From Escherichia coli (GTDB lineage: Bacteria; Pseudomonadota; Gammaproteobacteria; Enterobacterales; Enterobacteriaceae): 64,000 nt of DNA. This document shows positions 44,927 through 45,658 of the stretch, piece after piece. The stretch is from assembly GCF_016903815.1 (NCBI RefSeq), contig NZ_CP069973.1; one strand, 5' to 3'. Position numbers and translations under genes: made by a program. Positions within the stretch are counted from its first letter, which is position 1, and each line of letters opens with the position of its first letter. The notes under the pieces were generated by a model. It saw only the letters and a program-made list of their open reading frames with translations. It made no database searches and was not told the DNA's origin.

Positions 44927-45658
44927 ATGATTTTCCTTACATTTTATGACGACAAAAATCATAACATTGCCTTATTAATCAGTCAAACAGTTAACAAATG
45001 CAAACAAACAAGTAAGCACATTGTTGATAATTTGTTTATTTTTATGTTTTTGTTATCTATACCATTTTTTTCATTTGCTTCTGATACAAACAAAACGCCA
45101 CCATATCGCATGAGGGAGTCGATGTTTGAGTTATTAAAGGAGCAAAGGGATATTGTTATGCTTGGCGATAGCATAACCGCGCGAGGAGAGTGGAATGAGC
45201 TTCTTCCTAGTTTATCTGTAGCAAATAGGGGCATTGGGGGAGATGAAGTTAAATTTATGAAAAGAAGGATTGATTCTATATTTTTATTAAAGCCCAAATA
45301 TGTATTCATTATGGGCGGAACAAATGATTTCAGAAGAAAAAGAAGTGTTGATGATGTGGTTCGTGACTATAAGCATATAATAAAAAAACTACACAAACAC
45401 AGAATTAATGTATTCATTCAGTCCACCCTTTACGTGTCAAGAGAAAGCAGGTTAAATGACAACATAAAAATATTAAAATTAAACAATGCAATAAATAACT
45501 ATTGCTCTGTATCTAATTATTGTCGTTTCGTAGATCTTAACGTGCACATGGCAAAAGATAGAAAAATACTAGCTAAGTATAGCGATGATGGAGTCCATCT
45601 AAATGGTAATGGGTATTTAATGTGGGCGTCAATCATATACCCTTTAATTAAAAAATAA
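44927..45658 (+). CDS. GDSL/SGNH-family hydrolase with predicted N-terminal signal/anchor; prophage cargo
   Basis: SGNH blocks present: I VMLGDSITARG, II NRGIGGDEV, III IMGGTNDF, V DGVHLNGNGY; hydrophobic stretch IVDNLFIFMFLLSIPFFSFA precedes the domain; start uncertain (alternatives 44858, 45110, 45122). Confidence 0.65.
   Translation: MIFLTFYDDKNHNIALLISQTVNKCKQTSKHIVDNLFIFMFLLSIPFFSFASDTNKTPPYRMRESMFELLKEQRDIVMLGDSITARGEWNELLPSLSVANRGIGGDEVKFMKRRIDSIFLLKPKYVFIMGGTNDFRRKRSVDDVVRDYKHIIKKLHKHRINVFIQSTLYVSRESRLNDNIKILKLNNAINNYCSVSNYCRFVDLNVHMAKDRKILAKYSDDGVHLNGNGYLMWASIIYPLIKK

Follow-up and report, generated by a model that had tools for sequence, protein, structure and literature searches.

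A run of seven Ts in the signal-peptide-like region of a prophage SGNH esterase gene in Escherichia coli does not vary in length between strains, and a run in its divergent partner gene does

The neuO gene of prophage CUS-3 in Escherichia coli K1 specifies a phase-variable polysialic acid O-acetyltransferase whose expression is switched by slipped-strand mispairing in the 5' coding region, at a heptanucleotide VNTR, AAGACTC, present in 2-93 copies among isolates (PMC3046976). The CUS-3 record has 19 copies. A quite different device operates in the gtrABC locus of P22 and Salmonella, where phase variation of O-antigen modification is epigenetic, depends on Dam and OxyR with four GATC sites within OxyR half-sites being required in the promoter region, and affects the polysaccharide that is recognised by the phage's own tailspike (PMC2909390). 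The contingency loci of Neisseria, Haemophilus and Campylobacter have a mononucleotide run early in the coding sequence of a gene for surface modification, at which a change of +/-1 shifts the reading frame, and their tracts are known by length polymorphism between strains. Deep sequencing of N. meningitidis has pointed to variable tracts being mainly of at least 8 nt (PMC5084427), and in E. coli the indel rate is exponential in run length (PMC8510543).

The DNA considered here is a stretch of 64,000 nucleotides of E. coli ('the window'), in which a divergent pair of genes, one with a DUF1796 domain and the other encoding an SGNH/GDSL protein, lies between the integrase and the tailspike of a P22-like (Lederbergvirus) prophage at tRNA-Arg (Table 1). 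CUS-3 is likewise a P22-like Lederbergvirus prophage at tRNA-Arg with neuO in the slot between integrase and tailspike; the head-binding N-termini of the CUS-3 tailspike and of the window's share 90.6% identity, and acetyl modification of surface polysaccharide, presumed in the window, is a theme of both. A preliminary description of the window proposed for a run of seven Ts (T7) early in the SGNH gene exactly the mechanism used by neuO, with slipped-strand mispairing turning export or expression on and off. The neuO VNTR has abundant length polymorphism between strains, however, whereas the window has a single T7 and no such polymorphism, and NeuO is a cytoplasmic left-handed beta-helix acetyltransferase whereas the window's protein is of the SGNH esterase type, has a signal-peptide-like N-terminus and is paired with DUF1796. 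The P22 gtr locus resembles that of the window in being a conversion locus that lies next to the integrase in a P22-like prophage, but its enzymes are different and, since there are no GATC sites between 44449 and 45533, a Dam/OxyR switch of the gtr type is excluded. With the contingency loci the T7 shares its nature and, probably, its placing, but it is an A/T run of only 7 nt, does not vary in length, and belongs to a species that is proficient in mismatch repair and whose indel rate drops sharply as runs get shorter (PMC8510543).

As to the enzyme, the closest solved relatives are the sialate 9-O-acetylesterases EstA and PvSAE of Bacteroides and Phocaeicola (PDB 6NJC and 7PZG; E=1.7e-24, alignment from P59/Y60), small single-domain SGNH enzymes whose match spans nearly the whole domain, including a helix Y-x-x-R-x-x-L-F-E before GDS. 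That match is remote (89.8 bits), and the gene of the window differs in being prophage-borne and paired with DUF1796; its product is a putative esterase or transferase.

Table 1. Features of the DUF1796/SGNH locus and its surroundings (positions in the window; residues in one-letter code)
Feature	Position	Strand	Remarks
tRNA-Arg(CCT), prophage attachment site	42760..42834	+	ARAGORN
Prophage integrase IntS	42996..44153	+	Pfam domains; RefSeq coordinates
DUF1796 gene, divergent partner of SGNH gene, 218 aa	44270..44926	-	Pfam PF08795, E=8e-16; RefSeq coordinates
Sibling 7-nt run in DUF1796 gene	44587..44593	-	A7 on coding strand, AAA AAA ATA in M-M-K-K-I; T6, T7 and T8 seen
Divergent regulatory region between DUF1796 and SGNH	44927..45031	.	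Also 5' part of the 243-aa ORF from ATG 44927
Signal-peptide-like coding segment	45032..45079	+	L/M-FIFMFLLSIPFFSFA; predicted cleavage after S-F-A at 45079/45080; aligns with homologue signal peptides
T7 run	45065..45071	+	Codons CCA TTT TTT TCA (P-F-F-S); h/c-region of the signal-peptide-like segment
Putative mature SGNH/GDSL esterase domain, stop codon included	45080..45658	+	Pfam PF13472
Shine-Dalgarno-like GAGGGAG and ATG 45122	45112..45124	+	Start used by RefSeq/PGAP and the phage authors; probably internal
Catalytic motifs of the SGNH domain	45164-45172; 45587-45598	+	GDS; D..H of block V
A7 run in SGNH domain	45382..45388	+	Codons AAA AAA; A8 in 1/27 copies
P22-type tailspike, convergent with SGNH gene	45778..48177	-	Head_binding domain, E=1e-66

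The divergent pair (44270-45658), with its gap of ~100 nt, is a conserved two-gene module that is also found in an allele of another E. coli prophage, EC19, in metagenomic phage contigs and in kps-like capsule loci of Pseudomonas, the DUF1796 protein being 62% identical to the product of the partner gene in the latter. The copy in the window occupies a low-GC island of 1.58 kb (44200-45780; 32% GC), which occurs at an identity of at least 99.7% in 31 of 5,426 complete E. coli genomes and in the Lederbergvirus phage vB_EcoP-683R2. A search of the literature retrieved no paper on this phage and no paper mentioning DUF1796.

Several observations pertain to the company that the module keeps. In other phage contigs it adjoins lysis and tail genes, and the tail protein next to it in one unrelated phage contig (4445-6955) is 59% identical to the receptor-binding part (residues 104-799) of the window's tailspike. 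The Pseudomonas kps-like loci that have the module contain genes for KpsC/S-type proteins, KdsA, CMP-Kdo synthetase and a glycerophosphotransferase, and a 334-aa protein encoded just downstream of the module there (1538-2539) shows remote homology to residues 368-496 of the tailspike (27% identity, E=2e-9). The same tailspike (98.6%) is found in phage Gally, which lacks the DUF1796/SGNH pair. The longest homopolymer of the window, a T9 at 45813-45821, is in the tailspike gene (codons CAA AAA AAA ACA, near the C-terminus), and of 28 copies of this run 27 have T9, the exception being a T10 in one error-prone assembly. In the interval that separates the convergent SGNH and tailspike genes a hairpin between an A-run and a T-run (AAAAAACCATCTCATTATGAGGTGGTTTTTT; 45660-45700) was noticed by eye; it looks like a bidirectional terminator, and the terminator scan did not list it.

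The SGNH assignment itself comes from a match to Pfam PF13472 (E=4.5e-21, 76.6 bits against a cut-off of 32.9) and from an AlphaFold2 model of SGNH type with a mean pLDDT of 94. The Ser of GDS, the Gly, the Asn of GxND and the Asp-x-x-His that mark the SGNH/GDSL superfamily (Pfam PF13472 / PF00657) are all found, and G80, S82, G102, N133, D221 and H224 do not vary across the aligned homologues. The AT-rich gene is probably a horizontally acquired esterase gene of the sialate-O-acetylesterase type; NCBIfam and PHROGs gave it no functional name beyond 'lipase / unknown'. The inactivating frameshifts seen within the domain are occasional, single-lineage ones, namely CC>C at 45177/8 in two Logan assemblies of one project, G5>G4 at 45236 in one indel-rich assembly and A7>A8 at 45382-88 in one assembly.

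The presence of the T7 run is plain from the window sequence, where it was read directly at 45065-45071 as CCA TTT TTT TCA in the frame of the ORF 44858..45658 (+), with the product P46-F47-F48-S49 when residues are counted from ATG 44927. How unusual is it? There are 17 homopolymers of at least 7 nt in the 64 kb of the window. The island 44200-45780 has 3 of them where a first-order Markov model of the island gives an expectation of 2.05 (P=0.34), and the chance of one or more runs of at least 7 within any 90 nt of island composition is ~0.10; by that model the tract is neither longer nor commoner than composition predicts. The Phe codons of the gene are preferentially TTT (9, as against 4 TTC), and the Phe-Phe at the tract is its sole Phe-Phe dipeptide. 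At the homologous place the EC19 sister allele, whose SGNH protein is 52% identical, has CCC TGG TCT GCT TTT TCT with T5 as the longest run, and no comparable run is present in the signal-peptide regions of five other DUF1796/SGNH modules, so that T7 is not conserved across the gene family. The run is unremarkable and occurs at chance frequency.

Its length does not differ between strains: all 56 related DNA records have T7, the most divergent copy (8 SNPs) included. In 31 of 31 complete E. coli genomes the 151-bp segment 44990-45140 is identical in length, and in 29 of them in sequence also, the other 2 having one substitution at 44999; the 25 further records are from the phage, 2 IMG/VR contigs, 2 metagenome contigs and NCBI and Logan assemblies. 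Exact protein sequences were in addition looked up among ~15 billion predicted proteins, the products of T6 and T8 each being tried with three alleles. While the product of the in-frame 243-aa ORF was found in 631 contigs with the window's allele and in 85 with a Ser25 allele, the predicted T6 (61 aa) and T8 (52 aa) products were found in none; a 97-aa fragment arising from a different frameshift (CC>C at 45177), which served as positive control, was found. This look-up is less sensitive than the numbers suggest, since ORFs of 52-61 aa may be under-called by gene finders. The lengths are those of consensus assemblies, in which minority T6 or T8 subpopulations, and with them low-frequency switching within a population, are not visible. 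Between strains the tract is stable, and the preliminary description, which had itself suggested that tract length be compared among related copies, had regarded invariance as telling against a switch; it is invariance that the comparison yielded at that level.

Is the tract translated, and as part of what? The proposal that it falls in the coding region for a hydrophobic, signal-like N-terminus probably holds. A database search gave 572 relatives, mostly of 203-272 aa. In 59 of 59 homologues the GDS motif is at residue 36-93 (median 64) and never at residue 20 or before, and in 53 of the 59 there is a hydrophobic N-terminal segment. The N-terminal signal peptides of homologues align on the window's ...SKHIVDNLFIFMFLLSIPFFSFA, and the signal-peptide-like segment can be aligned with signal peptides of Sec type in 16 homologues. 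It comprises an h-region, FIFMFLLSIPFF, and then S-F-A|S (best 10-residue Kyte-Doolittle mean 2.80), i.e. what would be a Sec-type h-region with small residues at -3 and -1 of a predicted cleavage site. A conserved motif, D-x-T-x-x-P-P-Y-x-M-R-x-S-L-F-E, follows the signal peptide and is upstream of 45122; the P-P-Y-x-M-R-x-S-L-F-E helix within it aligns with 6NJC and 7PZG. In the AlphaFold2 model this first helix, P58-L69, is confident and begins upstream of 45122, and a start there would halve it. For the P. vulgatus enzyme a review considers the flexibility of the N-terminal helix functionally relevant (PMC10017367). Over the signal-like stretch (the 20 residues before the first helix, T7 codons included) pLDDT is 56-69, as against >95 in the domain, and low values before the first helix are as expected for a signal peptide. 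Because the conserved helix begins upstream of 45122, we place T7 in the signal-peptide part of the gene and regard the 178-aa RefSeq model as probably truncated N-terminally; on these sequence comparisons the tract is probably translated and the protein is probably exported.

The annotations are not of one mind about the start codon. ATG 45122, giving 178 aa, is the choice of RefSeq/PGAP in most genomes and of the authors of phage vB_EcoP-683R2, but PGAP is inconsistent in having a 243-aa model from ATG 44927 in at least one genome (S1-CAM-01-C), and a JGI call for the same gene has 182 aa. In five other modules (in the EC19 prophage, phage contigs and Pseudomonas) the SGNH gene begins with an ATG at a distance of 96-101 nt from the DUF1796 start, a spacing which, if it applies in the window, predicts a start near 45023-45032. 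No in-frame ATG is present in the window around that position where homologues start, nor is there in frame ahead of the hydrophobic core any canonical ATG with a charged n-region. What is present is TTG 45032, which is invariant in all copies. Its Shine-Dalgarno pairing is negligible (-0.6 kcal/mol), and the signal peptide from it would be 16 residues long without Lys or Arg, homologues having M-K/R starts; we favour it tentatively as a best guess that falls a little short of even. From ATG 44927, which abuts the DUF1796 start codon directly, within CATATG, the n-region would be 35 residues and the presequence 51 residues; it is the next likeliest candidate upstream of the tract and a distinctly doubtful one. 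ATG 45044 is an improbable start, weakened by being ATA in one metagenome copy and by the signal of only 12 residues that it would leave. Initiation at 45110 or 45122 is unlikely, if a good deal more worthy of attention than that at 45044. Local mRNA folding around the candidate starts did not discriminate between them. Of the two positions given in the preliminary description, 44858 and 44927, what survives is the placing of a start upstream of the tract; both positions are themselves doubtful, TTG 44858 being implausible as it is inside the divergent DUF1796 gene.

The region between the two genes merits some comment in its own right. A promoter scan found only a minus-strand promoter-like site, for DUF1796, at 44986..44958. 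By eye alone, TTGACA-18-TATAAA can be discerned on the plus strand at 44858-44887; it overlaps conserved Cys-Gln codons of DUF1796 and was not used as evidence. A known RNA element in the leader was sought and rejected, the Rfam search of the leader giving nothing below E=0.5 and nothing in 44900-45130. Positions 44999/45000 have three alleles (TG, AG and TA) among copies >99% identical. An out-of-frame ATG at 44998, the first codon of a mini-ORF of 5 codons (MQTNK*), is abolished by two of the three. Could that ATG, one frameshift away from a perfect signal peptide, be the lost ancestral start? It was rejected as such, since it has been lost twice, through two independent substitutions (44999 T>A and 45000 G>A) in copies otherwise >99% identical, and AAG-TAA-G is also implausible as a +1 slip site.

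Our preferred explanation, which we hold with fair assurance, is that T7 is an ordinary by-product of coding, TTT TTT TCA in the signal peptide of an SGNH esterase gene, and not a contingency tract. Its two Phe codons and Ser codon would belong to the hydrophobic core and the cleavage region of a Sec signal peptide, and the esterase would be exported and may act on acetyl groups of surface polysaccharide.

The alternative that fares best, unlikely as we think it, is that the annotated start is correct, with translation from ATG 45122 (or 45110) and T7 in an untranslated leader. The signal-like sequence upstream would then be a recent remnant whose start codon has been lost, and the product would be a cytoplasmic esterase without half of its first helix, or the gene would be decaying. 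ATG 45122 is the only candidate with strong anti-Shine-Dalgarno pairing (GAGGGAG, -8.0 kcal/mol), and this, together with its adoption by PGAP in most genomes and by the phage authors, the lack of an in-frame ATG close to the homologues' start position and the loss of ATG 45044 from one copy, speaks for it. So does a cluster of SNPs in 44927-45046: the 78 bp 44969-45046 hold six of the 8 SNPs of 44927-45658 (Fisher p=4e-4), and all six are non-synonymous in the long frame, that of the 243-aa product. Against it, the starts in homologous modules also have weak Shine-Dalgarno pairing (-3 to -5.6 kcal/mol), and the frame 45032-45122 is open and homologous, with an identity to the EC19 allele that is the same as that of the rest of the protein. 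Starting at 45122 would remove P58-S65 from a helix whose conservation extends to the solved esterases, GDS would come to stand at residue 15, and none of the 59 homologues is so short N-terminally. Further, were the tract untranslated, changes of +/-1 would be nearly neutral, yet none is seen although the DUF1796 tract varies.

That second tract is of the same length, 7 nt, and is 480 bp away. For DUF1796 the T6 product (113 aa) was found in 36 contigs and the T8 product (126 aa) in 7-15, with the full-length protein in 662. The run was also read directly in 28 DNA copies, where T6 is on two haplotypes in two chromosomal contexts and T8 on three haplotypes in three chromosomal contexts; since each is on several, slippage by +/-1 in DUF1796 has been recurrent and independent. 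The SGNH tract is T7 in 28 of those 28 copies. Slippage of a 7-nt A/T run therefore does happen in this island and is detectable in the present data. The invariance of the SGNH T7 would most simply reflect purifying selection on a translated frame; its sequence context may contribute.

Does the DUF1796 run act as a switch? The gene has suffered other damage as well, being interrupted by a nonsense mutation in EC19 and found in at least seven further truncated forms, in view of which recurrent one-way inactivation is at least as likely as reversible switching. In the EC19 copy (2676-3227 of the EC19 locus; DNA 94% identical) the T7 is intact and a premature stop, ..DMPDTT*, represents an independent inactivation. 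That the conversion module is slippage-switched at 44587-44593 while the T7 of SGNH is held by purifying selection on an exported enzyme is a scenario that we would mention as a long shot.

The idea that the SGNH T7 is itself a slipped-strand contingency tract, where a change of +/-1 truncates the exported precursor (T6 ending at TGA 45111-45113, 8 nt before ATG 45122, and T8 after 52 residues) and so toggles export or expression, draws on the position of the tract, downstream of every plausible upstream start and ahead of the conserved domain, such that a change of +/-1 would abolish the full-length exported protein, on the precedent of neuO slippage in a 5' coding repeat in the same slot of the sister prophage CUS-3 (PMC3046976) and on the variation of the run in the partner gene, but with 0 length variants in 56 DNA records, no T6 or T8 products against >700 in-frame contigs, a short tract at chance frequency that is not kept in the sister allele or other homologues, and Phe codon usage to explain it, we judge it very improbable. 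Programmed -1 frameshifting or transcriptional slippage on T7 was also considered and rejected, because there is no zero-frame X XXY YYZ heptamer and both shifted frames end within 4-13 codons.

A genuine switch at T7 would have meant homopolymer on/off control of a prophage surface-modifying enzyme, a form of control that is rare in E. coli; it is not supported, and the public data speak against it. With T7 best viewed as probable ordinary coding, the by-products of the analysis are of more interest than the run that occasioned it: a start that is probably mis-annotated, a conserved DUF1796/SGNH module in the neuO slot and a polymorphic DUF1796 tract. The probable N-terminal truncation of the 178-aa model, with the probable export of the protein, changes where its substrate should be sought. 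The module travels with tailspike receptor-binding domains and is also present in capsule loci. The polymorphic homopolymer of the island is the DUF1796 run, and if the reading in which that run is the switch were true, the neuO slot of CUS-3-like prophages would house, in the DUF1796/SGNH pair, a second type of polysaccharide-modification cassette under slippage control.
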